64,000 nt of DNA, taken from the NCBI GenBank assembly GCA_039804105.1, contig JBDRZU010000001.1, positions 640,001 through 704,000 on the forward strand. The letters are read 5' to 3'. Position 1 is the first letter of the stretch. Every line of letters begins with the position of its first letter. Shown here one piece after another: positions 18,958 through 61,308 of the stretch. This DNA is from a candidate division WOR-3 bacterium (lineage in GTDB: Bacteria > Hydrothermota > 32-111). The notes below the pieces were generated by a model that did not search any database, was not told the origin of the DNA, and saw only the letters and a list, made by a program, of their open reading frames with translations. The translations under genes were made by a program, and so were the position numbers.

Positions 18958-18985
18958 AGTTTAGCAAAAATTCTCGATAAATCAA
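18958..18985 (-). promoter_or_regulatory. Predicted promoter TTGATT-16-TAAACT, 8 nt before the ATG at 18949 (near-leaderless)
   Basis: Read directly. TG extended -10 (TGcTAAACT); no SD before the ATG. Confidence 0.6.
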
Positions 18986-18996
18986 TATAATATATA

Positions 18997-19024
18997 TTTA
19001 CTTTTCAAAATTTATTGATAATAT
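18997..19024 (+). promoter_or_regulatory. Predicted promoter TTTACT-16-TAATAT, 6 nt before the ATG at 19031 (leaderless)
   Basis: Read directly. TG extended -10; no SD. Confidence 0.55.
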
Positions 19025-19030
19025 TACACT

Positions 19031-20266
19031 ATGCTTAACTTAAAGAAAAGTGTTGATTATTATAAATCTATAATAAAAAAATTAGAGAAAAATGCATATT
19101 TATATCTATTGGGAAATTTACTTTCAGGTTTTGGGTTTTCTGCTTTTTCACTTCTTTTTAACATCTATTTAAAAAGTTTAAATATAGGGGAATCGAGGAT
19201 CGGGAATCTTTTATCGATTGGAACATTCACAACAGCGATACTCATTTTACCAGCAGCGTATATCGTTAAAAGGACCGATATAAAGAAATTTTTAATTCTA
19301 TCACCACTTATAACTGCAATCGGTTATTTGATAGCTATTCAAAGTTCGACATTCACTGCCAGAATTCTGGGATTCATTCTTGCAGGTGTAGCAGGTGCTT
19401 TCACATCAGTTATCGGTGGTCCTTTTATTATGTCCGTTTCAGATGAACAAACGAGAACCTTTTTGTTTTCACTGAGTCAAGCAACAATGTTGACAGCAGG
19501 AATAAGTGGAAACCTGATATCAGGTTTTTTACCAAACATTATCAAAAGATTCAACTTTTCAGAAATTCAATCTTTAAAATATGCAATATTTTTCCATCTA
19601 TTCTTTGTTTTTTTATCATTATATTTTTTTTCAAAGATAAAAACAAAAAGGCTTTATACTTCAACTTTCAAAGATAAAGTCAAGTTTAACACAAATCTAA
19701 AAATTATCTTTTATTTAATTCTTCCACCTCTAATAATAGGTCTTGGTGCGGGAATGACTATCCCTTTTTTAAATATCTATTTTAAATCGATATTTCACCT
19801 TTCGTCATCTCAAATAGGAATAATCTTTTCGATAGCCCAGATGTTGACAATTTTAGGTTCTTTGATTTCACCTTTGATAGCCAAAAAATTGGGACTCATT
19901 AACACAATAATCATCACACAACTCGTTTCCATCCCCTTTCTTTTTTTCCTGGGATTCTCGTCTTACTTTCCGATTGTTCTATTATCATTCTTTTTAAGAA
20001 ACGCTTTAATGAATATGGCTTCACCACTTTCCTCAAATTTCTCTTTAGAAATAGTTGATAAAGAGGACAGGCCATTCATCAGTGGATTGCTTTCATTGGC
20101 ATGGCTTGCTTCGTGGGGACTCACGGCAAACTTTGGGGGTTATTTTATAGAAAAAAGTGGTTATAGAATTCCTTTTACTTTCACCATCTTATGTTACCTC
20201 ACATCTTCAATTCTTTACCTAATACTCTTAAAACCACTTGAAAAAAATTTTAAAATCTCAAAATAA
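19031..20266 (+). CDS. MFS transporter
   Basis: About 12 hydrophobic segments in two 6-TM halves; motif-A-like SPLIAKKLG. Confidence 0.85.
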   Translation: MLNLKKSVDYYKSIIKKLEKNAYLYLLGNLLSGFGFSAFSLLFNIYLKSLNIGESRIGNLLSIGTFTTAILILPAAYIVKRTDIKKFLILSPLITAIGYLIAIQSSTFTARILGFILAGVAGAFTSVIGGPFIMSVSDEQTRTFLFSLSQATMLTAGISGNLISGFLPNIIKRFNFSEIQSLKYAIFFHLFFVFLSLYFFSKIKTKRLYTSTFKDKVKFNTNLKIIFYLILPPLIIGLGAGMTIPFLNIYFKSIFHLSSSQIGIIFSIAQMLTILGSLISPLIAKKLGLINTIIITQLVSIPFLFFLGFSSYFPIVLLSFFLRNALMNMASPLSSNFSLEIVDKEDRPFISGLLSLAWLASWGLTANFGGYFIEKSGYRIPFTFTILCYLTSSILYLILLKPLEKNFKISK

Positions 20267-25441: not shown

Positions 25442-26655
25442 TCTATCCCCCTGTAATAATGTTTTAAAATTTCCCTGTAATTCTTCCCCTGATTGGCCAT
25501 CTCCATAGCTCCATATTGACACATACCAACTCCATGGCCATAACCTTTTCCATAAATAAATATTTTATCATTCTTTTCTTCAAAATCAAACATTCTACTT
25601 TTTAAAAACCCACCTTGATATTCATCAAATGTAATGAGTTTTCTGATGCTCAAACCTTTTACAGCATATCTCTCTCCATAAATATCTAAAAGTTCAACTT
25701 CAACAACCCTTTTATGTTTATCATACTTTTTTATAGAAAATTTTGTAATCTGTAGATCCTTTTTAAAGATAGAAGAAGCATTTTTCGAAACCATTCTGTA
25801 AAAATAATCCTTTTCAAATTGATAACCCCAATTAGAATGCTTCGATTTATAACAATATGGTTTTCCATAACCGAATAAACAACTTTTTTGTGCATCTACA
25901 ACAGATCTTAAATAAGGAGAAGGTGTTCCCCCCCATTCGTCTTCATTGTTACTGGTAAAACCTCCGCATGTTGAATGATATTTTGCATCTATAGGAAAAC
26001 CTTTATACACAGCAACAATACCTCTTGTCATCTCAATTGCTAAATTCACCAAACTATCTTCAACAAGAACACCTCTATAAACCTGATCCTGAACACTTGA
26101 TTCAAGATCATAACCCATATCATAATTTTTATTCAACTTTCCAAAAGCATAAGTTCTTGCAGCAACCGCTTGTGCTTTCAATGCTTCAATCCTTTTTTTA
26201 TCAAGTTTTCCAATTTCTGCTGGCACAACACCCTTTAAATAATCTTCCATGTATAACCTATTGATCGGCAAAATAAAATTATCTACATCTTTGATCAAAA
26301 AAATTTCTCCTCTATATACCATTCCTTTATAAATAAGAAAACCATTTTTTTCGGTTGAAACAAATTTTAAAGGATAATATTTCAAAACGATTCTTTTTTT
26401 TCTGTTTATGTAAACCAGTGGATATTCATATCCAGAGTAAATAAAACATGTATCGTTTGGGTTAAGTTCTAAATCACCTTCCTGAGTGATCAGTTTGAAA
26501 TTTGATTTTGAAGTTATAAACGCTTCTTTAACTTTGTGTTCAAGAGCAATCCTTACAACTATCTCTTTATCATGGTCTATTAAAGCTTTTTTTGAACATC
26601 CAGTTAAAACAGTTAACAGGAAGAGAAAAAAAAATAGATTTCTTTTAAAACTCAT
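25423..26655 (-). CDS. SpoIID/LytB-domain lipoprotein (lytic transglycosylase-like)
   Basis: Lipobox LTGC, EDYLKGVVPAE, EALKAQAVAARTYA, DQVY, YHSTCGG, GYGHGVGMCQYGA, ILKHYY. Confidence 0.9.
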   Translation of the reverse strand: MSFKRNLFFFLFLLTVLTGCSKKALIDHDKEIVVRIALEHKVKEAFITSKSNFKLITQEGDLELNPNDTCFIYSGYEYPLVYINRKKRIVLKYYPLKFVSTEKNGFLIYKGMVYRGEIFLIKDVDNFILPINRLYMEDYLKGVVPAEIGKLDKKRIEALKAQAVAARTYAFGKLNKNYDMGYDLESSVQDQVYRGVLVEDSLVNLAIEMTRGIVAVYKGFPIDAKYHSTCGGFTSNNEDEWGGTPSPYLRSVVDAQKSCLFGYGKPYCYKSKHSNWGYQFEKDYFYRMVSKNASSIFKKDLQITKFSIKKYDKHKRVVEVELLDIYGERYAVKGLSIRKLITFDEYQGGFLKSRMFDFEEKNDKIFIYGKGYGHGVGMCQYGAMEMANQGKNYREILKHYYRGIELKKLY

Positions 26656-27914
26656 AAACTCTTAAATATTTCTCTACCAAATTTTATATAGTCCTTCAAA
26701 ATCGGTGGAAAATCAAAATCATTATCATTTTGATACTTTTCTATTATCGCTATAACCGTTCGTGGTGTTGCAAGACCTGACCCATTTAATGTATGAACAA
26801 AAATATTTTTTCCTTCTTTATTTTTAAATCTTATCCTTCCTCTCCTTGCTTGAAAATCAAGAAAATTACTAACAGAGGAAACTTCCAAAAATTCTTTTGA
26901 ACCTTCTGCCCAAACTTCAATATCGTAAGTTTTTGATGAAGCAAAAGATGTGTCAAAATCAGGTAGAAGTATCACTCTGTAAGAAAGACCGAGAAGCACA
27001 AGAACCTTTTCAGCTTCTTCAAGCATTTCAAGGTGAGCGATTTTAGAATCCTCTGGTTTTGTAAATCTAACAAGTTCAACTTTATTGAATTGGTGCAACC
27101 TTTTCAGACCTTTTGTATCTTTCCCATAAGAACCTGCTTCCCTTCGAAAGCACGCTGAATATGCAACAAATTTTTTCGGAAGATCATTTTCATTTAAAAT
27201 TTCATCTTTAAAAATGTTTGTTACAGGGACTTCGGCTGTTGGTATCAAAAAAAGTTCATCATCTTTTAATCTGTACATATCCTCTTCAAGTTTTGGCAAC
27301 TGACCAGTAGAAAAGAGTGTATCATAATTAACAAGAAAAGGAGGGAAAATTTCCTTATATTTATGTTTGACTGTATGTAGATCCAACATGAAATTAATTA
27401 GGACTCTTTCAAGGTATGCCGCTTTTCCAAAATAAAGTGGGAAATGGGAAGCTGAAATTTTCGCTCCCCTTTTAAAATCTATTCCTTCATCTGATTGAAC
27501 GATATCAAGATATGATAATTTTTTTTCTTCAAAATTCCCAAATTCTTTTACAACTTTAAAAGTCGCCTTTTCACCTGCGGGGACCTCTTCATCAACTATA
27601 TTTGGGATCCATTTTAAAAGGTTAAATTCTTCTTCTTCAGTTTTTTTCAATTCCTCTTCAAATTCTTTTATCTTTAAAGATATCTCTTTTCCTTTTTCAA
27701 GGAGGGGATTTATATCCCCTCCTTCCTTTCTTATAGAAGAAACTTTCAAACTGTTTTTATTTTTTTCCTCTCTTAAGAGGTTCAGGGAGTTTATTAGATC
27801 CTTTCTTTTATTTATAACTTTAAAAAGGTAGTCAAAGTCAACTTTACATTTTTTTGCTGCAGAACATTTTTCAACAAATTCTCTGTTCGATAATATAAAC
27901 TCCCTGTCAAGCAT
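26652..27914 (-). CDS. serS: Seryl-tRNA synthetase
   Basis: TGQLPK, LIPTAEVP, FRREAGSYG, RLHQFNKVE, DFQARR, HTLNGSGLA. Confidence 0.97.
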   Translation of the reverse strand: MLDREFILSNREFVEKCSAAKKCKVDFDYLFKVINKRKDLINSLNLLREEKNKNSLKVSSIRKEGGDINPLLEKGKEISLKIKEFEEELKKTEEEEFNLLKWIPNIVDEEVPAGEKATFKVVKEFGNFEEKKLSYLDIVQSDEGIDFKRGAKISASHFPLYFGKAAYLERVLINFMLDLHTVKHKYKEIFPPFLVNYDTLFSTGQLPKLEEDMYRLKDDELFLIPTAEVPVTNIFKDEILNENDLPKKFVAYSACFRREAGSYGKDTKGLKRLHQFNKVELVRFTKPEDSKIAHLEMLEEAEKVLVLLGLSYRVILLPDFDTSFASSKTYDIEVWAEGSKEFLEVSSVSNFLDFQARRGRIRFKNKEGKNIFVHTLNGSGLATPRTVIAIIEKYQNDNDFDFPPILKDYIKFGREIFKSL

Positions 27915-27923
27915 TCATACTCC

Positions 27924-30581
27924 TTATTTTTTCTTTAATTCACTCTGTGCAGCAGCAAGTCGTGCAATTGGAACTCTAAAAGGTGAACATGAAACATAAT
28001 CAAACCCATTTTTATTGAAGAAATCTATTGATGCTGGATCTCCCCCATGTTCTCCACAAACACCTATTTCAATATCAGAATTAACTTTTTTAGCGTCCTC
28101 AATTGCAATTTTTATCAACCTACCGACACCAACCTGATCAAGTGTCTGGAACGGATCATCTTTTAAAATCTTTTTATCTTCAATATAGGTCTTTAGAATT
28201 GGACCAACATCATCTCTTGAAAACCCTAATGTGGTTTGTGTTAAATCATTCGTTCCAAAGGAGAAGAAATCTGCTTCAGTTGCAATTTCAAAAGCAGTTA
28301 AAGCAGCTCTCGGTAACTCTATCATGGTTCCTATTAGAACTTTTAACTCCATTCCATATTCTTCAAAAACTTTTTTCATCGTGTTAACCACGACCTCTTT
28401 CTGTAACTGAAGTTCTTTAACATTACCAACAAGTGGAATCATTATTTCAGGTATTACCTTTTTTCCTTCCTTTGTTACTATACATGCTGCCTCAATGATA
28501 GCTCTTGTTTGCATTTCGGTTATTTCAGGGTATGTTATTCCCAGTCTGCAACCTCTATGTCCAAGCATTGGGTTCGCTTCTTTTAAACTTTCAATTTTCT
28601 GCTCAAGGACATCAACTGAAATTCCCATCTTTGAAGCTAAAATTTTTATCTGAGTTTCTTCTTTTGGTAAAAACTCATGCAATGGTGGATCAAGAGTTCT
28701 AATAACAACAGGGTACCCATCCATAGCCCTGAATATTCCTATAAAATCTTCCCTCTGCATTGGAAGTATTTTGTCAAGAGCCTTTTTCCTTTCCTCAGAT
28801 GTTGAGGAAAGTATCATCTGTCTCATCGCCTCTATTCTATCCTCACCAAAAAACATATGTTCGGTTCTGCAGAGTCCAATACCTTTTGCTCCAAAATTTC
28901 TTGCAGTTAAAGCATCCGATGGGGTATCAGCGTTTGCTCTTATCTCCAACCTTTTGAATTCATCCGTCAATTTCATTAAAGTTTCAAATTCATTTTTAAG
29001 TTCAGGTTTTACCTTGTTAACATTTCCTTCGATCACACGACCAGTTGACCCATCGATTGTGATAAAATCACCATCCTTCAAAACTTTATCCTTTATCTTC
29101 ATTATTCTTTTATCAAGATCAATTTCTATATCAGAACAACCTACAACGCATGGTTTTCCAAGGCCCCTTGCTACTACTGCCGCATGAGATGTCATTCCTC
29201 CCCTTGCAGTTAAAATACCATTACAGATATTCATTCCTACAATATCCTCAGGAGATGTCTCTTCTCTCACAAGGATAAGATCGTTTTCATTCTTTTTTCT
29301 TTCGACAGCTTCTTTTGCTGAAAAAACGATTCTTCCACTTGCAGCACCAGGAGATGCGGGCAAACCTTTTCCTAAAATATTAAGTTTTGCTTTCGGGTCT
29401 ATCATTGGGTGTAACATACCATCAACATCTTTTGGTGTAACCCTTAAAACAGCAGTCTTTTTATCAATTATTCCTTCTTCATAAAGGTTTATCGCTATCT
29501 TTATCGCTGCCTGTGGAGTTCTTTTCCCATTCCTTGTCTGAAGCATCCATAGTTTACCTTTTTCTATTGTAAACTCCATATCCTGCATATCTTTGTAATG
29601 TTTTTCAAGAAGGTTTCTATAACTTTCAAGTTCTTTATAAAGTTCTGGCATCAACTCTTCAAGTGTTTTTTGAGAATCATCAGTTTTCGAATTTTTGTTT
29701 ATTGGTTGTGGAGTTCTGATCCCAGCAACAACATCCTCACCCTGTGCATTTACGAGATACTCTCCATAAAAATAGTTTTCACCTGTTGAAGGGTTTCTTG
29801 TAAAAGCAACACCAGTTGCTGAATCATTACCCATATTTCCAAAAACCATCGACTGAACATTTACAGCTGTTCCCCAATCTTCAGGAATCTTTTCTATCTT
29901 TCTATATTCAATCGCTCTTTCATTGTTCCAAGATTTAAATACAGCTTCTATTGCACCCCACAATTGAACATTTACATCTTCAGGGAAATCTTTTCCTGTT
30001 TCCTTTTTAACAAGTTCTTTGTATAGTTTTACTATCTTTTTAAGGTCATCAACATCAAGTTCAACATCCTGAGTAACTCTCTTTTCTTTTTTCACCTTGT
30101 TCAATATCTCTTCAAAATGTTTATGTTCAACATGCAAAACAACATCACCATACATTTGAATAAATCTTCTGTAAGCATCATATGCAAACCTCTCGTTATT
30201 TGTGGATTTTGCAAGTCCTAAAACAGTTGTTTCGTTTAACCCTAAATTCAAAATTGTATCCATCATTCCAGGCATCGATGCGGGTGCACCTGATCTTACA
30301 GAAACAAGTAAAGGATTATTTTGATCTCCAAACTTTTTACCTAAAATTTCCTCCAACTTTTTCATATTTTTTTCAACATCTTTTTCAAGTCCATCTGGAT
30401 ATTTACCCCCAGTCTTTGTGAAATATGCACAAACTTCTGTTGTGATAGTAAAACCTGGAGGAACAGGTAATCCTAAAGATGCCATCTCTGCAAGGTTGGC
30501 TCCTTTCCCTCCCAGAAGCATTTTCATAGAAGCGTTGCCTTCTGTGACTCCTTTTCCAAAGAAGTAAATCATTTTTTCCAT
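27924..30581 (-). CDS. ppdK: Pyruvate, phosphate dikinase
   Basis: LGGKGANLAEM, SVRSGA..SMPGMMDT, GGMTSHAAVVARG, GIGLCRTEHMF, FGTNDLTQ, CGEHGG; AGGAGG SD. Confidence 0.98.
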   Translation of the reverse strand: MEKMIYFFGKGVTEGNASMKMLLGGKGANLAEMASLGLPVPPGFTITTEVCAYFTKTGGKYPDGLEKDVEKNMKKLEEILGKKFGDQNNPLLVSVRSGAPASMPGMMDTILNLGLNETTVLGLAKSTNNERFAYDAYRRFIQMYGDVVLHVEHKHFEEILNKVKKEKRVTQDVELDVDDLKKIVKLYKELVKKETGKDFPEDVNVQLWGAIEAVFKSWNNERAIEYRKIEKIPEDWGTAVNVQSMVFGNMGNDSATGVAFTRNPSTGENYFYGEYLVNAQGEDVVAGIRTPQPINKNSKTDDSQKTLEELMPELYKELESYRNLLEKHYKDMQDMEFTIEKGKLWMLQTRNGKRTPQAAIKIAINLYEEGIIDKKTAVLRVTPKDVDGMLHPMIDPKAKLNILGKGLPASPGAASGRIVFSAKEAVERKKNENDLILVREETSPEDIVGMNICNGILTARGGMTSHAAVVARGLGKPCVVGCSDIEIDLDKRIMKIKDKVLKDGDFITIDGSTGRVIEGNVNKVKPELKNEFETLMKLTDEFKRLEIRANADTPSDALTARNFGAKGIGLCRTEHMFFGEDRIEAMRQMILSSTSEERKKALDKILPMQREDFIGIFRAMDGYPVVIRTLDPPLHEFLPKEETQIKILASKMGISVDVLEQKIESLKEANPMLGHRGCRLGITYPEITEMQTRAIIEAACIVTKEGKKVIPEIMIPLVGNVKELQLQKEVVVNTMKKVFEEYGMELKVLIGTMIELPRAALTAFEIATEADFFSFGTNDLTQTTLGFSRDDVGPILKTYIEDKKILKDDPFQTLDQVGVGRLIKIAIEDAKKVNSDIEIGVCGEHGGDPASIDFFNKNGFDYVSCSPFRVPIARLAAAQSELKKK

Positions 30582-30622
30582 CTTATTAACCTCCTGATTT
30601 TTTGAAAATTTTTAAGAATTGT

Positions 30623-30665
30623 ATTTTATTATAAATAAAGATAAAAATCAAGTATTTTATTTCAA
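30623..30665 (-). promoter_or_regulatory. Predicted ppdK promoter; two readings: TTGATT-17-TAAAAT or TTGAAA-16-TATCTT
   Basis: Read directly in the divergent ppdK/sufS intergenic region; ambiguous. Confidence 0.45.
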
Positions 30666-30671
30666 TAAATG

Positions 30672-30699
30672 TTGACAAAATAGCAAAAAAAGATACTAT
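30672..30699 (+). promoter_or_regulatory. Predicted promoter TTGACA-16-TACTAT, 6 nt before the ATG at 30706 (leaderless)
   Basis: Perfect -35; no SD before the ATG. Confidence 0.7.
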
Positions 30700-30705
30700 T
30701 CTTTT

Positions 30706-31971
30706 ATGAAAAACTATAAAAAATATTTTCCTTTTTTTAAACACAATCCTGAAAAAGTTTATCTTGATAGTGCATGTATGGGGTTAAAGCCCTACTCGAT
30801 GTTAAAAAGTATAAATGAATATTATCTTAAATATTCGATCTGTGCAGGAAGATCTTCTTATAAACTATCAAAAGATCTTGAAGAGAATCTTGATATATCA
30901 AGAGAAAAAATTGCAAAACTCATCAACGCAAAAAGCAAAAGAGAGATTGTCTGGACTAAAAACACCACAGAATCTATAAACCTTTTAGCAAAATCTTTCA
31001 AATTTAAAAATGATAAAAAAAGAGTTATCATAACAGAAAAAGAGCATAATTCAAACCATTGTATCTGGAAAGAGTTGAATAAAAGGGGTATTATAGAACT
31101 TACAATAATAGATGTTAACAAAGATAATACATTCAATCTCGAGATGCTTGAAGAAGAATTGAAAAAAGGCAATGTCGCTTTAGTATCAACGGTTCACATT
31201 TCAAATCTCGATGGGATCGAAAACCCTATAAAAAAAATCTCAGAGTTGACACATAAATACGGAGCTTACCTTTTGATCGATGCAGCACAATCCGTTCCAC
31301 ATACAAAGGTTGATGTTTCAAACAATTTAATAGATTTTCTCGCGTTTTCAATACATAAACTATATGGACCAACAGGGCTTGGAGTATTGTATGTGAAAAG
31401 TGAATTGTTCGATAAACTCGACCTTTACAATGTTGGCGGAGACACCATCAGAAATACTTTTATCGATAAGGACCCAGAGTATAGAACATACCCTTATAAA
31501 TATGAAGCAGGACTTGCTGATTTTTCTGGGATATACAGTGTTTCATCAGTTGTTGATTTCATAAACAATATTGGTTATGAAAATATAGAAGAAAGAATAA
31601 ATATCTTGAACAACAGATTCAGAAAATTTTTAAAACAGTTTGATGAAATTAAGATAATTGGTGATATCGAACCAGAAAATAAAGTAAAAGGTATCACAAC
31701 ATTTTTTATAAAAAAGTTTACAAGATTTTCTGAAAATGAACCAACAATAGGAGAAAAACTTGATAAGAAATATAACATACTCTTAAGAACAGGATTTTTC
31801 TGTGTTAATCCATATTTTGATAACAGGGAAAAAAAAGGTGAAATTAATCCCTTATATTACCCTGCAATAAGAGTATCTTTTGGTTTTTACAACGATGAAG
31901 AGGATCTCGAAAAACTTGAAAAAAGTATAAAATGTATTTTAAAATCTCTTAAAGGTTGGCCAACATTATGA
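30706..31971 (+). CDS. Class V aminotransferase / SufS-like (group II) cysteine desulfurase
   Basis: YLDSAC..LKP, NTTESIN, EHNSN, DAAQS, FSIHKLYGPTG (PLP Lys), YEAG, RTGFFC (catalytic Cys loop), RVSFGFYN. Confidence 0.85.
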   Translation: MKNYKKYFPFFKHNPEKVYLDSACMGLKPYSMLKSINEYYLKYSICAGRSSYKLSKDLEENLDISREKIAKLINAKSKREIVWTKNTTESINLLAKSFKFKNDKKRVIITEKEHNSNHCIWKELNKRGIIELTIIDVNKDNTFNLEMLEEELKKGNVALVSTVHISNLDGIENPIKKISELTHKYGAYLLIDAAQSVPHTKVDVSNNLIDFLAFSIHKLYGPTGLGVLYVKSELFDKLDLYNVGGDTIRNTFIDKDPEYRTYPYKYEAGLADFSGIYSVSSVVDFINNIGYENIEERINILNNRFRKFLKQFDEIKIIGDIEPENKVKGITTFFIKKFTRFSENEPTIGEKLDKKYNILLRTGFFCVNPYFDNREKKGEINPLYYPAIRVSFGFYNDEEDLEKLEKSIKCILKSLKGWPTL

Positions 31972-32357
31972 AAAAGAATCAACTGAAAAAATATCTTATA
32001 CAGATCCAAAAAGAAAATAAAGAACCTATAAAAAATTTCAACATTTCAATAGAAGGGTCAGTTTGCGATACGAACTCTAAATTTAAAGATGTTGTTTCTT
32101 TCTATATTTTAAACGAAAATGGTTTAATAAAGGAAATTTCAGTAAAATGTGGACCTTGTGATCCTTACGCTTACATAGTATCCAATATACTTTCTAAAAT
32201 CTTAAAGGGATTAAAAATCGAACAGATAAGAATAACCAACGATATGATATACCAAGAATTTTTAAAATACCTAGATTATAAGATAGATGAAGATATGAGA
32301 TTCCATTTTGAAACTCTTCTAAAAATCTTGGAAGATAAATTAAACAACAAAGTTTAA
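31968..32357 (+). CDS. Divergent SufU/IscU (NifU-N)-like protein
   Basis: ATGA overlap with the desulfurase stop. The pattern GSVC...KDVVSFYI.NENGLIKEISVKCGPC....VSNILSKILKG resembles NifU-N strands and helix. Confidence 0.5.
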   Translation: MKKNQLKKYLIQIQKENKEPIKNFNISIEGSVCDTNSKFKDVVSFYILNENGLIKEISVKCGPCDPYAYIVSNILSKILKGLKIEQIRITNDMIYQEFLKYLDYKIDEDMRFHFETLLKILEDKLNNKV

Positions 32358-32366
32358 ACTTTTTTT

Positions 32367-34757
32367 ATGTTAAAACAAAAATTTTTAACTGTATCAATTT
32401 TTGTTTTTCTATGTTTTAAAATAATTTATGGAGAATATTTCCATACGGTGTTGTTAACAACAAAAAACCATAAAATATCTGATATAAATTTTATCTTCCT
32501 ATGTAAATATTATGGACTCAAAGTTAAGGAGATTAAACTCGAAACCACACAACCATTAGATGATTCAATGTTCAAAAATGAAAATGGAGAATATATTAAA
32601 TCTATCTGCATAAGTTTCAAAAATCTTGAAGATTCATCACTCATAAATACAGAAGAAATCTCTCTTTTAAAATCCACAGTTCTTAAAGGAACCAATATTT
32701 TGATAAATGATATTTCTGACTCTTTTAACTTTACAAATATAAAAATTCTAACTGATTTTAAATTTTTCAAAACAGAGTATTTTAAAAACTATAAAGCATG
32801 GTTATTTAATGAAGATAGTTGTAAAATTTCTGATGTTTTCTCAAAAAAAGTTATTCCATGTGAATATTTTTTTGAAGATGGTTTTACCATTACTGGAGAT
32901 GGGAAAACAGATTTAATAACCGATAGTGAAAATAACAATTCAATCTTTTCTTATTTTAACTTCGGAAAAGGAAAAATATTTTTGAATGGCTGTATAATTA
33001 ATAAAAGTTTGTTAACAAATAAACTTGTTAATCTTTATTATGGATCAGAAAATAAACCAAAATCAATAAATAATATTTTACCGATTATGATATTCTTAAA
33101 ATTTTCAAATGGAGCAATGTGCTGGCATAATCACAAAAAATACGCTAATCTGACGATAGATGATCCCAATTTGATCGAACAGTTTGGGGCATTAAATTAT
33201 AAAGAACTATTAAAGCAGATGGAAACACACACATTTCACACAACGATAGCGTTCATACCCAGAAATTTTGAAACTAACTTTGATACATCAGTGTTGAACT
33301 TATTCAAAAATTATCCTGATAAATTTTCTATAACTATACATGGAAACAACCATGATGGATATGAATTCATATGCTTTACTCAGGAACAGTTAGATTCCTT
33401 AAATAAACTATATAATAATCGTTGGATAACACAAATCCCACGGCCTTTTAAAGATCAAGAGTGTGATATAGTTGAATCTTTAACTAGAATGGAACTTTTT
33501 AAATTGAAAATGGGAATCGATTACTCTATAGATATGGTTTTTCCATGGGGGATACCACTTTCACCAACACTTGGAATTTTAAAAAAATATAATTTTAATT
33601 CAACCATAAATGCTCAAACACAACCATTTTTATTTTTAGAAAATGATTATGATACAAATTATGATTTCAACATGAGACCTGTGAATCTAAATTTCTCTAA
33701 CTTTGCTGTAATCGGAAGAAATCCACCCTATTTTTCAGATGATTCTGTTTGTTTAAAATTTCTTTTAGATCTGTTTATAGATAAACCTCTTCTTTTATAT
33801 TGTCATGAAAACTTTTTTTCAAAAGGGATGGATTCGTTCAACCCTTTTGCATATTTTGTTAACTCTTTATTTTACAAAATTGAATGGAAATCTCTTGGTT
33901 ATATAACGAAAAGGACTTATCTAGAAAAAGAGAATTTTGATGGAAGTGTCGATGTTCAATTTTATGGTAACAGTTTAATAATATCGAACAATTCCAACAC
34001 TCAAAAAACATATAACCTGAAAAAATGTGAAAAATTCACTTCTTCATTTTTAACCGTTCTTGTTGATGGGATGAATTTCCCATATAATATAGAAAATGAT
34101 ACACTTTATATCAATCTTGTAATACCACCAAATAAAGAAAAAGAAATAAACATAAAATATCGAAATCCCATAGATTTTAGTTTTACAGAAAAAATCGATT
34201 TTAATGTTAACAAAGATAGTTTATCATTGTCCTGCCAAATAGTGAATCTAACTTCGGATAGTGGTGCGTGTCCGATTTTCTTTTATGAGTCGAACAAGAG
34301 TAATCTCCAGTATGTTTCAACAATCTTTTTTAATCCTTTTGATACACAAACAATCTACTTATCATTAGACAAAAATTTTGATTTTGAAAGGGATAGTTTT
34401 TCTGTCATGATTGATCCTTATAATTTAGTATACGAAATGGAAAAGGCAAACAATAAACTAAATTTTAACAAGAAAATCAAAAATTTATCTATCAATTCTT
34501 TTTCAAAAAATAATGTGTATTTAATCAATCAAAATAAAAATGAATTAACTTTTGTTTTTGATACTCCAACCGATTTGAAAGAAATATCAGTTTATATCTA
34601 TGATACAACTGGTAGATGTATTTTAGAGGAAATATTTAAAAATGATAAAAGGATTTTCACTTTAAACATATCTAAATTACCAACAGGTATGTTCTTTGTA
34701 AAATTTAAAACCGGAACTTTTTACACGAAAATATTAAAATTTTTAAAATTAGAATAA
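32367..34757 (+). CDS. Secreted protein: polysaccharide-deacetylase-like domain, CARDB-like repeat and T9SS-type C-terminal domain
   Basis: Signal peptide; TIDDP, HGNNH, VFPWG (NodB-like motifs); IDPYNLVYEMEKANN (CARDB-like); IYDTTGR..LNISKLPTGMFFVK (Por secretion tail). Confidence 0.65.
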   Translation: MLKQKFLTVSIFVFLCFKIIYGEYFHTVLLTTKNHKISDINFIFLCKYYGLKVKEIKLETTQPLDDSMFKNENGEYIKSICISFKNLEDSSLINTEEISLLKSTVLKGTNILINDISDSFNFTNIKILTDFKFFKTEYFKNYKAWLFNEDSCKISDVFSKKVIPCEYFFEDGFTITGDGKTDLITDSENNNSIFSYFNFGKGKIFLNGCIINKSLLTNKLVNLYYGSENKPKSINNILPIMIFLKFSNGAMCWHNHKKYANLTIDDPNLIEQFGALNYKELLKQMETHTFHTTIAFIPRNFETNFDTSVLNLFKNYPDKFSITIHGNNHDGYEFICFTQEQLDSLNKLYNNRWITQIPRPFKDQECDIVESLTRMELFKLKMGIDYSIDMVFPWGIPLSPTLGILKKYNFNSTINAQTQPFLFLENDYDTNYDFNMRPVNLNFSNFAVIGRNPPYFSDDSVCLKFLLDLFIDKPLLLYCHENFFSKGMDSFNPFAYFVNSLFYKIEWKSLGYITKRTYLEKENFDGSVDVQFYGNSLIISNNSNTQKTYNLKKCEKFTSSFLTVLVDGMNFPYNIENDTLYINLVIPPNKEKEINIKYRNPIDFSFTEKIDFNVNKDSLSLSCQIVNLTSDSGACPIFFYESNKSNLQYVSTIFFNPFDTQTIYLSLDKNFDFERDSFSVMIDPYNLVYEMEKANNKLNFNKKIKNLSINSFSKNNVYLINQNKNELTFVFDTPTDLKEISVYIYDTTGRCILEEIFKNDKRIFTLNISKLPTGMFFVKFKTGTFYTKILKFLKLE

Positions 34758-34760
34758 TTT

Positions 34761-35912
34761 TTATTTCATAAAATCGACTATCTTGGTAATATAATCATAA
34801 TCAATCTTTAAATTTCTTGTTGGAGCACATTCGATTACATTCTTTTTTATATCCTCATATTCATTTATCCCGTAAAATGACAATCGCGTTGGGGATTTTA
34901 TATCTTCAAAAAAATTTTCAATTTTTTCAATAGATTTTTCAATAACATACTCTTTTGAACCATTCAATCCAAAAACATTTTTTCCAAAAATAAAAAATTT
35001 CTCAGAGTATTTATTTTTGTTTACCTTCATCCATGCTGGAATTACTATCGAAAGTCCAGCACCATGTGGAACATCAAACAATGCACTTAAAGCATGTTCA
35101 ATAAGATGGTTTTCAAATTTGTATTTACCTATACCTGCTGTTGTTATACCTGAGAGTCCAAGCGCCGCAGCCCACATAATATTGGCTCTTTCGTTAAGAT
35201 TTTCCGGATCTTTGAGGACTTTATAAGTTGAATCAATAACTGTTTTAACTATCGTCTCTGTAAAACCATCCTGAATAGGGGTATTTTTTTCTTCTGCTGT
35301 AAAATATCCTTCAAGAACATGAGATATTATATCAACCGAAGCGTATGCGGTATAATCTTTCGGAAGAGTAACAGTTAATTTCGGGTCAAGAATTGAAAAT
35401 TTTGGGAAAAGATTTTCGCTCTGTATTCTTATTTTATGCTTTAAATTATCATTTTGAATTACAGAAATCGGATTGAATTCACTCCCGGTTGCAGAAACTG
35501 TTAAAATAACCATAAGCGGAAGCGCTTTGTCTATTTTAATATCCTTTGAGAAAAGATCCCATGGATCATTCTCATAAAAATAGCCAGCCGCAATCGCTTT
35601 TCCAGTATCGATAACACTTCCCCCACCGAGTGTGACTATGGAATCTATTTTTTCCTTTCGTGCAATTTCAATTCCCTCTTTTACTTTTTCAATAACAGGA
35701 TTAGGTTTCACCCCCTCAAGAATAAAATATTCGGATCCATTTTCCTCTATCATTTTGACAAGTTTTTCTAAAAGACCATATTTTTTTACAGATCCTTTGC
35801 CAATTATAACTAAATGTTTTTTCCCTAAAATTTTTAAATACTCCTTTGATGAATAGAATTTATCGACACCAAAAATGATCTTTACTGGATTGTAGAAAGT
35901 GAAACTGTTCAT
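34761..35912 (-). CDS. Iron-containing alcohol dehydrogenase (BdhA/YqhD-like butanol dehydrogenase)
   Basis: NPVKIIFG, GGGSVID.GK, SATGSE, DIISHVLE, HLIEHALS..PHGAGL. Start at ATG 35912 after AAGGAG; the ORF-track ATG 35936 lies inside the -10 box. Confidence 0.92.
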   Translation of the reverse strand: MNSFTFYNPVKIIFGVDKFYSSKEYLKILGKKHLVIIGKGSVKKYGLLEKLVKMIEENGSEYFILEGVKPNPVIEKVKEGIEIARKEKIDSIVTLGGGSVIDTGKAIAAGYFYENDPWDLFSKDIKIDKALPLMVILTVSATGSEFNPISVIQNDNLKHKIRIQSENLFPKFSILDPKLTVTLPKDYTAYASVDIISHVLEGYFTAEEKNTPIQDGFTETIVKTVIDSTYKVLKDPENLNERANIMWAAALGLSGITTAGIGKYKFENHLIEHALSALFDVPHGAGLSIVIPAWMKVNKNKYSEKFFIFGKNVFGLNGSKEYVIEKSIEKIENFFEDIKSPTRLSFYGINEYEDIKKNVIECAPTRNLKIDYDYITKIVDFMK

Positions 35913-35934
35913 ACTTTCTCCTTTTTTACAAATC

Positions 35935-35962
35935 ATTATAAATTTTTATCATCAAATTTCAA
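35935..35962 (-). promoter_or_regulatory. Predicted promoter TTGAAA-16-TATAAT for the alcohol dehydrogenase
   Basis: Perfect -10, short leader with SD. Confidence 0.7.
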
Positions 35963-36015
35963 TATTCATTAAGAAAATTTAAAAAAAATTGTCAAAAGCT
36001 ATTTCTTTGATACTG

Positions 36016-36043
36016 TTGACATAGTAAAATCATTCTATATAAT
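36016..36043 (+). promoter_or_regulatory. Predicted promoter TTGACA-16-TATAAT for the lipoprotein gene
   Basis: Both hexamers are perfect consensus; followed by AAGGAGGT SD. Confidence 0.8.
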
Positions 36044-36076
36044 TCCAAAAAATTTATTTAAAGGAGGTATTATAAA

Positions 36077-36757
36077 ATGAAGAAACTGTTTGTTTATTTG
36101 CTTGTCATTTTAACAATCATTGCAATTTCCTGTTCAAAACAGAAAGTAAAAATTGAAGGTATTTACAAATACTCAGTTGCATTCACAAAAAAGGTTAATT
36201 TCAAAGACATCAATAATGTAACTCTTGGAGACACTTCTTACACTTTTGGTGAAATTAACCTCTACTGGGATTTAAAAGAGGAACCAAAAGGAACAAACAT
36301 TATTATTGAAAAAGCAGAAAACACTGATTCTGTTTATCAGGAACCGATAGGATATCAACTTAAAAAAACAGACTTTTTTACAGACAAAATTTCATCATCA
36401 GGGAAATATTACTATAAAATTTCAATAGATAAAAATCTTATAAATAAATATTCTATTGATATCCCAGAGTTAATAATATATTCACCAACAACAAAAGATA
36501 CAGCAGTAGCAAGCAAAAATTTAACAATCTATTTTAACAAAATCGATGGAGCACAGAAGTACAATATTATTCTTATCGATTACAAAAATAACCCTGTATG
36601 GACACTCGAAAGTGCAGACACACAGATTACATATACAGGTGATCCACTTCAGCAAGGTTATGTTTACAATCTTATAGTTTCTACAGAAATTTTAGTTGAT
36701 TCAATAAATAAAATAAATATTTCTTCAGAATCACAATTTTTGGTAAACAAAAAGTAA
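36077..36757 (+). CDS. Hypothetical lipoprotein (beta-sandwich/FN3-like), probably highly expressed
   Basis: Lipobox AISC; perfect promoter, perfect SD and its own terminator. Confidence 0.8.
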   Translation: MKKLFVYLLVILTIIAISCSKQKVKIEGIYKYSVAFTKKVNFKDINNVTLGDTSYTFGEINLYWDLKEEPKGTNIIIEKAENTDSVYQEPIGYQLKKTDFFTDKISSSGKYYYKISIDKNLINKYSIDIPELIIYSPTTKDTAVASKNLTIYFNKIDGAQKYNIILIDYKNNPVWTLESADTQITYTGDPLQQGYVYNLIVSTEILVDSINKINISSESQFLVNKK

Positions 36758-36781
36758 AAGATTCAAATCAAGGATAAAACT

Positions 36782-36812
36782 AAAAAAGGGGAGTTCAACA
36801 CTCCCCTTTTTT
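36782..36812. terminator. Bidirectional intrinsic terminator between the convergent lipoprotein and CDF genes
   Basis: AAAAAA-GGGGAGT-tcaac-ACTCCCC-TTTTTT perfect hairpin with A and T tracts on both sides. Confidence 0.9.
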
Positions 36813-37701: not shown

Positions 37702-37707
37702 GGTTTA

Positions 37708-37735
37708 ATTATAAAATGTAAATATAGTTAGTCAA
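37708..37735 (-). promoter_or_regulatory. Predicted promoter TTGACT-16-TATAAT, 6 nt before the CDF ATG (leaderless)
   Basis: Read directly; no SD. Confidence 0.75.
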
Positions 37736-37737
37736 TA

Positions 37738-37765
37738 TTGACTTTAAAACTAATCAATATAAAAT
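37738..37765 (+). promoter_or_regulatory. Predicted degP promoter TTGACT-16-TAAAAT
   Basis: Its -35 is back-to-back with the CDF -35 in the palindrome AGTCAATATTGACT (37730-37743). Confidence 0.7.
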
Positions 37766-37794
37766 TATTAATTCAGAAAACTCGGAGGTATCAT

Positions 37795-39255: not shown

Positions 39256-39273
39256 AACTCAAGGAAGGTAAAG

Positions 39274-40107
39274 ATAAAAGAGATAAACGATGTTTCACTT
39301 GAGATGTATCTTAAAGAGATAAAGAAATATCCTTTACTCTCTGAAAGGGAAGAAAAAGAACTTGCAAAAAAAATAAGAGAAGGAGACAAAAAAGCACTTG
39401 AAAAGTTGATTTTGGGAAACCTTCGTTTTGTGGTTAATGTTGCGAAAGAGTATCAAGGCAAAGGACTAACACTAGCTGAACTCATCAATGAAGGAAATTA
39501 TGGTTTAATAAAAGCAGCTCAAAAATTTGATGAAACAAAAAATGTTAAATTTATATCCTATGCTGTATGGTGGATAAGACAATCGATTATGAAAGCAATT
39601 CTTGAAAATAACAGTAATATAAGAATTCCTTTATCCCAGATAACAAAAATAAACGCAGTTAATAGAGCACAACAGGAAATACTCGACCAAGAAAACAGGG
39701 CCCCAACCTTCAAAGAGATAGCAGATAAAATTGGGATCTCTGAAAATGAAGTTAAAAATATTCTGAATCTCAACAAAGTCGAACTATCACTTTCAGATCC
39801 AATAGGAGATGATGAAAACCTATATCTTGGTGACACGATAATAGAAGAAAATGAGTTATCACCAGAAGAAACATTACTGAGAAAAAGATACAAAGAAACT
39901 TTAAAAAATCAACTCGAAAAACTTTCGGAAAGGGAAGCCTTGGTATTGAAAAAATATTTTGGACTTGAGGATTATAGGCCGCATACACTTGAAGAAATAG
40001 GAAAGGAATTGAATATTTCAAGAGAAAGAGTCAGGCAGATCAAAGATAGAGCGATAAACAAATTAAAAGAGATGACCAAAAATGTTCTGGAGCCATACGA
40101 TGGATAA
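39274..40107 (+). CDS. RpoD/SigA-family sigma70 factor lacking region 1.1 (probable ATA start at 39274; first ATG is 39304)
   Basis: Region 1.2 SLEMYLKEI, 2.1 NLRFVVNVAK, 2.3-2.4 KFISYAVWWIRQSI, 4.2 TLEEIGKELNISRERVRQI. Confidence 0.9.
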   Translation: MKEINDVSLEMYLKEIKKYPLLSEREEKELAKKIREGDKKALEKLILGNLRFVVNVAKEYQGKGLTLAELINEGNYGLIKAAQKFDETKNVKFISYAVWWIRQSIMKAILENNSNIRIPLSQITKINAVNRAQQEILDQENRAPTFKEIADKIGISENEVKNILNLNKVELSLSDPIGDDENLYLGDTIIEENELSPEETLLRKRYKETLKNQLEKLSEREALVLKKYFGLEDYRPHTLEEIGKELNISRERVRQIKDRAINKLKEMTKNVLEPYDG

Positions 40108-47245: not shown

Positions 47246-47253
47246 AGATTCTC

Positions 47254-56098: not shown

Positions 56099-56540
56099 CT
56101 GTCCTCAACTTTTTATCTTTTAGTATTACATATATCAAAATAACTCCCGAGATATTTGCAAAGAGATCGAACAGAGAGCAACCTCTGTTTTTCAAAAATA
56201 TCTGATGCAGTTCATCAAACATCCCTATCAAAAATACTACTAAAAAAGTTAACCTTATGTTGAAGTTAAAACCTTTGTTCAAATCTTTTTTGGCAGCCAA
56301 AAAAACTAAAACTGCCAAAATAAAATATTGAAGAAAATGATATATTTTGTCAAGATTTAATGCAAGTATTTTGTAAAAAACTCCTTCTTTTGCAATAAAA
56401 AATTTTCTCAAATTAAAAAATATTCTCTTTAAAAAATTTCCTTTATCATACTCATCATTAAAATTCATAGATCCCACAATAAATATAAAGATTGTCCATA
56501 AGGATGGAGGTAACCAGTGCAGAATTCTTTTAAGTTTCAA
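56088..56540 (-). CDS. VanZ-family membrane protein
   Basis: DKIYHFLQY..L, DELHQ.F...R, DLFAN..G. Confidence 0.85.
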   Translation of the reverse strand: MKLKRILHWLPPSLWTIFIFIVGSMNFNDEYDKGNFLKRIFFNLRKFFIAKEGVFYKILALNLDKIYHFLQYFILAVLVFLAAKKDLNKGFNFNIRLTFLVVFLIGMFDELHQIFLKNRGCSLFDLFANISGVILIYVILKDKKLRTDGI

Positions 56541-58292: not shown

Positions 58293-58819
58293 TTCAAAAC
58301 CTCAACAGTTAAACTATCATTTGTATAAATACAGATTTCTGAAACTATTTTCAACGAGTTTACAACTATATCTTCAGCGGAAAGATTTGAATATCTTACA
58401 AGTGCTCTTGCTGCTGCATAAGCGTAAGCACTCCCTGAACCTATTGAAACTATACCATCATCAGGTTCAATTACATCTCCTTTTCCAGATATTATAAGGG
58501 AATGTTCTTTATCCATAACAACAAGCATCGCTTCAAGTTGTCTTAAAATTTTATCCTGCCTCCATTCCTTCGTTAGATCAGTCGCAGCTTTTATTATATC
58601 TCCTTTTGAGTTCATAAGGTACCTTTCAAATTTATCAAAAAGTGTTAACGCATCAGCAACCGAACCAGCAAACCCTGCAAGAACTTTACCTTCATAAAGT
58701 TTTTTTACTTTTCTTGCACTTTTTTTAACTATCGTTTCGCCAAGCGTAACCTGCCCATCTCCACCCATCACGGTAATTCCATCTTTTCTTAAACCAAGTA
58801 TTGTTGTTGATCTTATCAT
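58289..58819 (-). CDS. hslV: ATP-dependent protease subunit HslV
   Basis: STTIL, GDGQVT, GFAG..ADA, IGSG, ICIYTN. Confidence 0.97.
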   Translation of the reverse strand: MIRSTTILGLRKDGITVMGGDGQVTLGETIVKKSARKVKKLYEGKVLAGFAGSVADALTLFDKFERYLMNSKGDIIKAATDLTKEWRQDKILRQLEAMLVVMDKEHSLIISGKGDVIEPDDGIVSIGSGSAYAYAAARALVRYSNLSAEDIVVNSLKIVSEICIYTNDSLTVEVLK

Positions 58820-58822
58820 ATA

Positions 58823-61273
58823 TCACTCCAAATAATTGATTAAAGAATCTATCCTTGTTTGCAATTTTAAAAAAGTAAGATTCTCAAAAACTTTTTTCTT
58901 TAAAATCTCTTTCAGATCATTTCTTTCTTTATAAAAAATTAACAAAAAAATCAAAAGTTCAGTTTTTGTTAAAATATTTTTGCCAGGACTGATCGATGAT
59001 AATTTTTCGATAAATTTTCTTAAAACCTCTTCACCAAGTTCTTTTTTATACTTAACCACAAGATTTATAGTCAATTTTTCTAATTTGTTTATTATATCAT
59101 TTTTATTTAAATAATCAAGTTTCGTAGAAGGCCAAAAACCAGATAAAAGATCAAGTTTTACCTTATGAAATACTATATGATCAGGAATTTTTTCTTTTTC
59201 TGAAAATGTTTTTAGAAGTTCATTTAAATAATATACTGATTTTTCAAAATCAAAAAGATTGAAATAAAGATGCGATAAATTGTTGAGAATTCTTCTCTTC
59301 AAACCTATATTTGTTTGAACAAGTACTCCTGCCAAAAGTGAAGAAAAGATATCAAGAGATGTTGAAAAATCACCAATTTTCGAGTAAAGAACAGCAAGGT
59401 TAAGGTATAAACTCTGTAAAGCGTTATCCATATTTGAATATTTAAAAATCTCAAGCGCCCTATTATAATTTTCCAAAGAGAGTTCAAAATTTTCCATATC
59501 ATCATACAAAATTCCCAAACTCATAAAAACTTTTCCCAAATCTCCAATAAAATTGTTATCTCTACAGTTTTTCTTACATCTTTCAAGAAAGAATTCTGCT
59601 TTTCCATAATCCTCAATTATTATGTTAAAATTTCCAACAAGAAAATCGTACGTCATTTTCTGCCTGTTATCAAGATTTTCATACTGTATTTTGTTCATCA
59701 AATTTTTAAACTGTTTCAATTCAAGATTGTTGTAAAGAAAACTAAGATAAAGCAACTTTTGGGTGTTCGATTTACACATTTTTAAATTAAGTTTTTTCCC
59801 CTTTATTAGATCAAGCAATATTTTTATATTTGTTCTTTCCTCTTTATCCTTAATTTTTTGAGAAAAGATCTCTGCTCCATTTATATTCCCTTCTGAAATA
59901 AAAATTTTCGACATGATCACAAGTTTTTTTTCATTTTCACTTTTTATACGTTCAACCATCTTTTTCGAAAGAATATTGTCACCATAATAGTATAACCTTT
60001 CGGAAACTTTAATAAGGTTTTTATCATCTCCTTTCAAAAAACCAAATTTTAAATCCTCAAAGGTTTTTAAAGATTCAGGATATTTTAATTTTATTTTAAA
60101 TTTCTTGGCAAGATAAAAGTATAATGGAGGATACATATACCTGTAATAACCATTTATATTTTTTAAAACCAATCTGTTTGAAAGGTATTCTAAAATTTTA
60201 AAATCATTTTTACTTTTTATTTTACGAGTATCAATAACGAGTCCATATTTTAAAATGCTTTCAAATTTTGATTCTAAATCTTGACCCAACTCGAAATCAT
60301 CATTTAAAAATTCATAAAGATCAAAATCAAACAATTCTTTCTTTTCTCTTATAAATTTTGATACAAGGAACCTGTTTCCACTTGTAATATCAAATAAAAA
60401 ATTCAACAAAAAAATCGACTTCTCTTTTAAGAATAGTTCCAAATTTCTTGAAATTTCATCAAGATAGAGATTTTCTATTGTAAATTCTCTGTAATCTGTT
60501 TTTTTCACAATATTTAAAATTCTATTCAAATTTCCATCTTCCTCGATTGATAAAGGATTATAAAAAAAGCATATATTTTTATCAGATACATTATCAAAAT
60601 ATTTGTCAAAATCATAAAAACAAAAATTTTTATATTCTCTTTCTAAAACATTTTTTAAATATGTTTTTCCAGATCTGAAACCTCCTTTTATTATTACATT
60701 TTTACCTTCATTCAAACATTTTCTTATTTCCCTTTCACACCTAAATGGAATTTTTATTTCTCCAATCCTGTTTTTTTCAAATATTGTTATACAATTTTTC
60801 CCCTTTTCCTTTGATGAGTACAAAGCGTTATCAGCGTTTTCAAGTACACTTTCAATATTTTCAACATCACCTTCTGAAACTCCAAATGAAAGTGTTATTC
60901 TTATCATATTGTTGTTAAAAATTATAGGATTTTTTTCAATTCTTTCCTTAAAACTTTCCAGAACCCTTACAAAATCTTCCTTTGTTTTCAAAGAGGATAT
61001 CAGAATAAACTCATCACCTCCATATCTTATCGGGAAATCTCCTCGTGAGGAAAATTCTGTAAGAATTTCTGAAACTTTTTTGATAACAAAATCTCCAGTT
61101 TGATGTCCATAAATATCATTGATACTTTTAAAATCATCTATATCAAATATTGATAAAACTATTTTATCTGAAAGGAAATTTTTTAAATTGTTAAAAAACC
61201 TTTTATTGAAAATACCAGTAAGATCATCATAATATACAGGTTCCAATCCCTTTAACTTCTCTTCCACTCCCAT
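58823..61273 (-). CDS. Diguanylate cyclase (GGDEF) fused to a reduced STAND-like P-loop domain and TPR repeats
   Basis: DDLTGIFN, DIDDFKSIND.YGHQTGD, RYGGDEF, ADNALY.SK..GKN; Walker A GGFRSGKT; TSGN; TPRs (SLGILY...YNRALEIF, NLAVLY, NNLSHLY). Confidence 0.8.
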   Translation of the reverse strand: MGVEEKLKGLEPVYYDDLTGIFNKRFFNNLKNFLSDKIVLSIFDIDDFKSINDIYGHQTGDFVIKKVSEILTEFSSRGDFPIRYGGDEFILISSLKTKEDFVRVLESFKERIEKNPIIFNNNMIRITLSFGVSEGDVENIESVLENADNALYSSKEKGKNCITIFEKNRIGEIKIPFRCEREIRKCLNEGKNVIIKGGFRSGKTYLKNVLEREYKNFCFYDFDKYFDNVSDKNICFFYNPLSIEEDGNLNRILNIVKKTDYREFTIENLYLDEISRNLELFLKEKSIFLLNFLFDITSGNRFLVSKFIREKKELFDFDLYEFLNDDFELGQDLESKFESILKYGLVIDTRKIKSKNDFKILEYLSNRLVLKNINGYYRYMYPPLYFYLAKKFKIKLKYPESLKTFEDLKFGFLKGDDKNLIKVSERLYYYGDNILSKKMVERIKSENEKKLVIMSKIFISEGNINGAEIFSQKIKDKEERTNIKILLDLIKGKKLNLKMCKSNTQKLLYLSFLYNNLELKQFKNLMNKIQYENLDNRQKMTYDFLVGNFNIIIEDYGKAEFFLERCKKNCRDNNFIGDLGKVFMSLGILYDDMENFELSLENYNRALEIFKYSNMDNALQSLYLNLAVLYSKIGDFSTSLDIFSSLLAGVLVQTNIGLKRRILNNLSHLYFNLFDFEKSVYYLNELLKTFSEKEKIPDHIVFHKVKLDLLSGFWPSTKLDYLNKNDIINKLEKLTINLVVKYKKELGEEVLRKFIEKLSSISPGKNILTKTELLIFLLIFYKERNDLKEILKKKVFENLTFLKLQTRIDSLINYLE

Positions 61274-61280
61274 ATAAATT

Positions 61281-61308
61281 ATTATAAAATATTATGAAAA
61301 AAAGTCAA
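61281..61308 (-). promoter_or_regulatory. Predicted promoter TTGACT-16-TATAAT, 7 nt before the ATG at 61273 (leaderless)
   Basis: Fills the 37-bp gap after the polA stop; no SD. Confidence 0.75.

Follow-up and report, generated by a model that had tools for sequence, protein, structure and literature searches.

Predicted promoters of a candidate division WOR-3 bacterium depart genome-wide from the 17-bp spacer rule

The 64,000-nucleotide (nt) stretch of DNA analysed here (the window, G000:C1:640001-704000) comes from a candidate division WOR-3 bacterium. Its genome (G000) is 1.81 Mb in two contigs (C1 and C2), with 30% G+C, ~96% coding DNA and 85% completeness by markers. The closest named record to its primary sigma factor, RpoD (88% identity), belongs to candidate division TA06 bacterium 32_111, which we take to be a member of GTDB phylum WOR-3. 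A preliminary description of the window had reported sigma70-type -35 and -10 boxes that were consistently 16 nt apart and had proposed that this geometry is lineage-specific. We find a genome-wide, lineage-bound departure from the 17-bp rule, for which we infer a cause below. The promoters are predicted from sequence, the position of the ATG serving as a proxy for the transcription start site, which in sigma70/sigmaA promoters lies about 7 nt past the -10 box. The predicted promoters of the window and its sigma factor gene are given below, with strands, posteriors from the two-box model described later and, where available, the spacer of the orthologous promoter in G004, a genome of the same genus.

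18958..18985 (-): TTGATT-16-TAAACT, predicted promoter of an MBL-fold hydrolase gene starting at 18949; posterior 0.94; ATG 8 nt past the -10 box
18997..19024 (+): TTTACT-16-TAATAT, predicted promoter of an MFS transporter gene at 19031; posterior 0.82; ATG 6 nt past the -10 box
30623..30651 (-): TTGATT-17-TAAAAT, predicted ppdK promoter, boxes at 30651-30646 and 30628-30623; posterior 0.76; 16 in G004
30672..30699 (+): TTGACA-16-TACTAT, predicted promoter of a cysteine desulfurase-family gene at 30706; posterior 0.97; ATG 6 nt past the -10 box
35935..35962 (-): TTGAAA-16-TATAAT, predicted promoter of an iron-containing alcohol dehydrogenase gene; 16 in G004
36016..36043 (+): TTGACA-16-TATAAT, perfect consensus ahead of a gene at 36077 encoding 226 amino acids (aa); 17 in G004
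37708..37735 (-): TTGACT-16-TATAAT, predicted promoter of a CDF transporter gene; ATG 6 nt past the -10 box; identical geometry in G004
37738..37765 (+): TTGACT-16-TAAAAT, predicted promoter of degP-sigma-M23; 16 in G004
39262..40107 (+): second group-1/2-like sigma factor gene with regions 1.2, 2, 3 and 4 and no region 1.1
61281..61308 (-): TTGACT-16-TATAAT, predicted promoter of a GGDEF gene at 61273; ATG 7 nt past the -10 box; 16 in G004

All eight hexamer pairs listed in the preliminary description were found where it had placed them, with 16-nt spacers. The ppdK promoter, which it had left as 16 or 17, fits best at 17; the 16-nt register offers no usable -10 box. The claim that every gap large enough holds a promoter was too strong, the model having found no confident promoter in the 48-nt gap ahead of the sigma gene (posterior 0.12) or in the 61-nt gap ahead of the gene starting at 56468 (posterior 0.28). 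An additional TTGATT-16-TAAAAT pair (25562-25589, minus strand, score 0.99) lies within an open reading frame of 410 aa and is possibly an internal promoter. The divergent promoters at 37708-37765 stand back to back, their -35 boxes 2 nt apart and forming a short palindrome. A loose consensus scan of positions 27000-41000 gave 94 matches versus 69 +/- 9 in shuffles, and thus weak matches alone mean little; the three best matches were 16-nt sites already described. From the ATG positions, the mRNAs of the MBL-fold hydrolase (18949), MFS transporter (19031), cysteine desulfurase-family (30706), CDF transporter (37701) and GGDEF (61273) genes are likely to be leaderless.

The sigma factor of the window is short, has no sequence ahead of region 1.2 and lacks region 1.1. 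We presume that it resembles the Bacteroidota sigma. Its frame is open from 39256, and the region 1.2 match begins upstream of 39304, where the first ATG lies. A Shine-Dalgarno-like stretch precedes an ATA codon (39274), and a non-standard start codon is therefore possible.

Spacer lengths across the genome

Exact TTGACA-Nk-TATAAT pairs (perfect pairs) were counted for k from 10 to 24. G000 contains 27 at k = 16, 4 at 17, none at 18 and 0-3 at each other length; 25 of the 27 are intergenic. When the sixth base of the -35 box was left free, the counts were 60 at 16 versus 14 at 17. A two-box model in which the spacer was left free was fitted to 489 operon leaders (1617 called genes gave 510 leaders, reduced to 489 by removal of repeats). 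The model boxes, TTGA(C)(A/T) and TA(T/A)AAT, occur in about 69% of the leaders with spacer weights of 0.738 (16), 0.238 (17), 0.007 (18) and 0.001 (15), a weighted mean of about 16.25 over the 16-18 classes. Confident calls numbered 329, with 247 at 16, 77 at 17 and 5 at other lengths. Hence, 16 stands as the mode, whereas its reported consistency does not, the ratio being about 3:1. The genome-wide shift of the mode that the preliminary description had proposed is borne out by this motif discovery (74% at 16, 24% at 17), together with a mode of 17 in Bacillota (see below). The model log-likelihood was 1009 for the real leaders, 22 for shuffled and 381 for reversed leaders, and a start biased to 17 ended at the identical 74:24 split.

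The excess of 16 was seen in all seven genome segments tallied (six 200-kb bins of C1, the window's bin excluded, plus C2) and in promoters of all kinds. The 16S rRNA promoter has a 16-nt spacer, as does the dnaG-rpoD leader in both G000 and G004. Among the 42 tRNA and tmRNA genes, 22 have a box pair (16 at 16, 4 at 17, 1 at 18 and 1 at 19). Among promoters with perfect consensus and those of rRNA and tRNA genes, 16 is no rarer than among the others (14:2 versus 233:75, P = 0.38). At G000:C2:312-340, the -35 box of a 17-nt promoter forms one half of an inverted repeat; the arrangement is also present in G001, G002, G004, G008 and G012 and is likely an operator.

The box pairs are positioned as promoters would be. 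An in-frame ATG lies 6-9 nt past the -10 box in 115 of the 324 confident 16/17 pairs, compared with 4 pairs in which the distance is 0-5 nt and 13 in which it is 10-15 nt, a pattern that we infer to reflect leaderless mRNAs beginning at the A of the ATG. The same arrangement was found in 0 of 36 cases in a Bacillota sample. When TTGACW alone was scored, with the -10 box unused, it peaked 34-37 nt upstream of in-frame ATGs (18, 27, 14 and 16 cases). The probably leaderless third of the promoters coexists with genes having strong Shine-Dalgarno sites. It is likely that the box pairs are housekeeping promoters read by the RpoD holoenzyme.

The 16 and 17 classes share the same box matrices, have similar box scores (P = 0.27) and carry a TG extension at similar frequency (48/247 at 16 and 13/77 at 17), and no compensation for 16 by better boxes or TG was found among the 247 versus 77 promoters. 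Since matrices, scores and TG frequency agree, a single sigma factor would seem to read both classes. Spacer G+C is also alike in the two classes. A+T accounts for 83% of the spacers, which contain long runs, and the discriminator has a G+C content of 15%.

Conservation of spacer length was examined in orthologous promoters of G000 and G004. A 400-kb portion of G004 gave 86 leaders, 47 of which could be paired (proteins 51-97% identical). The pairs were 30 of 16/16, 7 of 17/17, 1 of 18/18 and 9 that switched between 16 and 17 (Fisher P = 0.003); length was thus kept in 38 of the 47, and no 15-nt spacer occurred among them. The spacer letters have mostly diverged. We conclude that selection keeps spacer length within the 16-17 window.

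Spacer modes in related and distant genomes

The preference for 16 is strong within the genus, five genomes giving perfect pairs in a ratio of 136:26:2 for 16:17:18. Across 40 genomes of the phylum the counts were 1130 at 16, 752 at 17 and 118 at 18, with 16 ahead of 17 in 27 genomes, 17 ahead of 16 in 11 and 2 ties, although these genomes are kin and not statistically independent. The extremes are G032, with 193 of 214 perfect pairs at 16 (193:15 for 16:17), and G036, an assembly with some duplicated stretches, with 128 of 131 at 17 (2:128). Both have unusually high perfect-consensus counts, and those of G036 mostly have the TG extension. G036 also has rpoB twice, likely an assembly duplication. 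Family f8 is 17-mode, f4 leans to 17 and f2, f7, f12 and f15 are mixed. Model weights for G038 were 0.57 (16) to 0.30 (17), and the same code returned 17 for G035. The perfect pairs of G030 spread over 14-20 with 15 commonest, and the model gives 16; G043 and G044 have spacers of 16 and 18 and no 17 among their 14 and 12 perfect pairs.

Two other phyla were sampled by 61 genomes each. In the phylum of a Peptoniphilaceae record, which we take to be Bacillota, perfect pairs numbered 192 at 16 and 941 at 17, with 17 ahead in 60 of the 61 genomes, and the model run on 200 kb of G071 gave 17 (0.49) over 16 (0.03). The second phylum, which we take to be Thermodesulfobacteriota, gave a broad spread of 288:228:148 for 16:17:18, with 16 commonest, although for 200 kb of G137 the model returned 17 (0.56). 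As 16 is commonest in that phylum also, the 16 mode is not unique to the WOR-3 lineage. Thus, the proposed lineage specificity holds within the genus but not for the phylum, which is mixed; the distinctive feature is a range confined to 16-17 in which 16 predominates. In a tree of RpoC fragments from 39 of the 40 genomes (G018 left out) the 16-leaning genomes fall in three well-supported clades above an open base.

Sigma factors, core polymerase and what may set the spacing

G000 has four sigma70-family genes. RpoD (577 aa) is encoded at G000:C2:110513-112246, after dnaG, and aligns to region 1.1-1.2 of E. coli sigma70 and without gaps to regions 2-4 (residues 290-574 to E. coli 328-612). Its -10 and -35 reading regions are intact, with the region 2.4 and 4.2 motifs unchanged. 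We rejected the short sigma of the window as the primary sigma factor, given its lack of region 1.1 and the presence of this RpoD. The preliminary description had put the short sigma forward as a candidate cause of the 16-nt spacing, which was not upheld. In G038, G020 and G026 (98-99% complete) searches with the short sigma gave no match except RpoD and one short fragment, and these genomes prefer 16 (16:17 counts of 29:12, 28:11 and 31:18, respectively). Conversely, the 17-mode genomes (f8, f16 and f4) have a second sigma. Hence, with a full RpoD present and short-sigma-free genomes preferring 16, the short sigma is not needed for the 16 mode.

G018 (99% complete, 130 contigs; loci L122-L131 and L202) differs. 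No match to RpoD was found there, and the only group-1/2 sigma found is orthologous to the short sigma of the window, with which it shares the degP-sigma-M23 gene order and 44% identity. Leaders from 200 kb gave 26 pairs at 15, 14 at 16 and none at 17; the model weights were 0.59 (15) and 0.30 (16), with boxes TTGAC and TAwwTT. Since the sigma differs and the mode is 15, spacer mode moves with the sigma factor in at least one case.

The structural causes that the preliminary description had suggested, an altered sigma3-sigma4 linker or beta-flap, did not materialize: RpoD regions 2-4 have no indel relative to E. coli sigma70, and the G000 flap through the tip helix aligns gap-free to four solved RpoB chains. 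Linker length was rejected as a cause: the only short linkers seen are those of the f8 RpoD (1 residue, 17-mode) and the G018 sigma (2 residues, 15-mode), and these point in opposite directions. RpoD residues 320, 335, 421, 427 and 492 (G000 numbering) looked discriminating and failed against G032, G036 or E. coli. No CarD-sized short gene was found in the 40 genomes searched, every match above the cut-off lying in a frame of 685-1098 aa.

The explanation we favour, with somewhat better than even confidence, is an RpoD holoenzyme whose accepted spacing window is 16-17, region 4 lying a little closer to region 2 or being turned in its direction. It is likely that the preferred spacing of RNA polymerase has shifted between lineages and that, relative to E. 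coli or Bacillota, the accepted spacing has shortened by about three quarters of a base; the polymerase itself would then have a shifted spacer optimum. In this scheme the ordinary RpoD holoenzyme would read TTGACW/TAWAAT pairs as start-site promoters with region 4, on the beta flap, displaced or turned in this way. A 16-nt spacer would impose least strain, 17 would be tolerated and 15 and 18 would be selected out. No indel or single residue tracks spacer mode, and substitutions spread over sigma or core would therefore account for the shift. In a review, sigma4 is described as rotating to fit various spacers and the sigma4.2-sigma2.3 distance as setting the length (PMC4496709). 

Several observations weigh against this explanation. 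RpoD regions 2-4 lack any indel relative to E. coli, and, with G032, G036 and E. coli taken into account, no RpoD column separates the 13 16-mode from the 8 17-mode sequences. The flap tip (compared in 31 of the 40 genomes and read in G005 and G030 besides, f8 not among them) and the beta-prime zipper/zinc site are conserved, and no change in them explains the spacing. In a quarter of G000 promoters the spacer is 17 nt and the boxes are no poorer, and thus 16 and 17 may be nearly equal. Spacers of 16 and 17 bp gave equal strength on average in a synthetic library in E. coli (PMC8695583); a standard enzyme may therefore suffice. The kinship of the genomes compared counts on the same side.

A broader proposal, to which we give about an even chance, is that the -35/-10 distance is an evolvable ruler of the housekeeping holoenzyme that, within a single phylum, would have moved from ~15 in G018 (RpoD lost) through 16 in G000 and G032 to 17 in G036 and f8, with boxes unchanged.

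The equal box quality at 16 and 17 and the library result would also suit an ordinary polymerase that is nearly indifferent to 16 or 17, slippage in A/T runs and a deletion bias having driven spacers to the shortest working length. The compact, A+T-rich genome, the long runs in its spacers and the 9 of 47 orthologous pairs that switch length fit such a mutational origin. However, G038 (50% G+C, spacers 41% G+C) likewise prefers 16, whereas G036, a small genome with A+T-rich promoters, is almost wholly at 17, and Bacillota favour 17 by 941 to 192. Perfect-consensus and rRNA/tRNA promoters, moreover, are no less rich in 16 than the rest. We consider this explanation unlikely, although it survives better than those that follow.

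Spacer length and DNA twist are linked in principle. A less negatively supercoiled or more twisted chromosome, in which 16 bases rotate as far as 17 do in E. coli, would account for a genome-wide effect and needs no change in sigma or flap, none having been found. G000 nevertheless encodes both gyrase subunits, GyrB and a GyrA that carries a GyrA-box-like motif, and a single TopA. Reverse gyrase is present in 5 of the 40 genomes, spread over the 15-mode (G018), the 16-mode (G024 and G026) and the 17-mode (G023 and G035), and was rejected as a cause. Predicted twist per step is 34.3 degrees in both 16- and 17-nt spacers, and neither spacer composition nor predicted twist distinguishes the classes. 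We regard a topological cause as improbable.

Still less probable is that the short sigma reads 15-16 and RpoD 16-17, promoters used by both settling at 16. The G018 promoters, at 15/16 with the ortholog as the only group-1/2 sigma found, are what such sharing would draw on. Against it, G000 lacks a 15-nt class, and its 16-nt promoters show no excess of the TAnnTT box of G018 (T at position 5 in 11% at 16 and 13% at 17); the short-sigma-free genomes that prefer 16 and the 17-mode genomes with a second sigma also oppose it.

Finally, sequences that loosely match the consensus abound in this DNA. That the 16 mode is an artefact, due to A+T richness, to repeats or to the register of the motif, nevertheless has a negligible chance and is refuted at the sequence level by off-spacer counts of 0-3 versus 27, deduplicated leaders, flat spacer profiles in shuffled and reversed leaders, the return of 17 by the same code in G071 and G035, and the near-complete distinctness of the G032 sites among the 100 of 214 listed.

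Elsewhere, the window encodes a 796-aa protein with a C-terminal Por secretion (type IX-like) sorting domain (32367-34757, plus strand). Inspection by eye of G000:C2:415388-419718 showed, next to gyrA, a gene for 1032 aa whose start resembles Cas9 and, after it, genes resembling cas1 and cas2. Scanning viral contigs with ppdK yielded no useful result.

Significance and relation to known systems

The 17-bp spacer has been treated as fixed by polymerase geometry, and two recent cross-phylum surveys describe it as predominant or domain-wide. In one, 17 predominates in 49 species under a model trained on E. coli (PMC12641261). In the other, the median spacer is 17 in 49 of 49 genomes, a rule said to hold "across the bacterial domain", and 17 exceeds one third in 60 of the 67 phyla and falls below that share in no phylum; the main text does not mention WOR-3 (bioRxiv 10.64898/2026.09.23.753901). 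Spacers of Thermotoga maritima are likewise centred on 17 (PMC3636130). In literature coverage from which subscription journals were mostly absent, no paper describing a mode of 16 for housekeeping promoters was found, nor any joining WOR-3, promoter and sigma factor. The spacing is nevertheless not fixed, the excess of 16 in G000 being 3:1 to 7:1 and relatives standing as far apart as 193:15 and 2:128. In these lineages, prediction tools and expression parts designed around a spacer of 17, or restricted to 16-18, will rank promoters wrongly. The 16- and 17-mode relatives are matched enzyme pairs for finding what sets the spacing. If the distance is an evolvable ruler, comparison of these enzymes would locate the determinant of geometry and would give promoter classes partly orthogonal to those of E. 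coli.

The primary sigma factor of the Bacteroidota/Chlorobi type lacks region 1.1 and reads promoters of the form TTG-N17-23-TANNTTTG (bioRxiv 10.1101/172254). The sigma of the window is similarly short and without region 1.1, and its ortholog is apparently the sole group-1/2 sigma in G018; unlike that type, G000 retains a full RpoD. The TANNTTTG box with an upstream TTG gave 0-1 matches per spacer, and no enrichment, in 160 G000 leaders lacking the main promoter.

The rrn P1 and other stringently controlled promoters of E. coli have 16-bp spacers between near-consensus boxes. G000 promoters resemble rrn P1 in having near-consensus boxes 16 apart, the 16S promoter included. They differ in that 16 is general, over 247 leaders of all kinds rather than a stable-RNA exception, and in that the discriminator has 15% G+C, whereas that of rrn P1 is G+C-rich.

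The closest likeness in form is to the canonical sigma70/sigmaA promoter, with TTGACA/TATAAT boxes and an occasional TG, placed ahead of and facing operon leaders and rRNA and tRNA genes. The G000 RpoD is likewise similar to E. coli sigma70 in its unchanged 2.4 and 4.2 motifs and its linker length. Unlike the canonical promoter, with its mode of 17, the G000 promoter has a mode of 16, with 17 a minority and 18 nearly absent.

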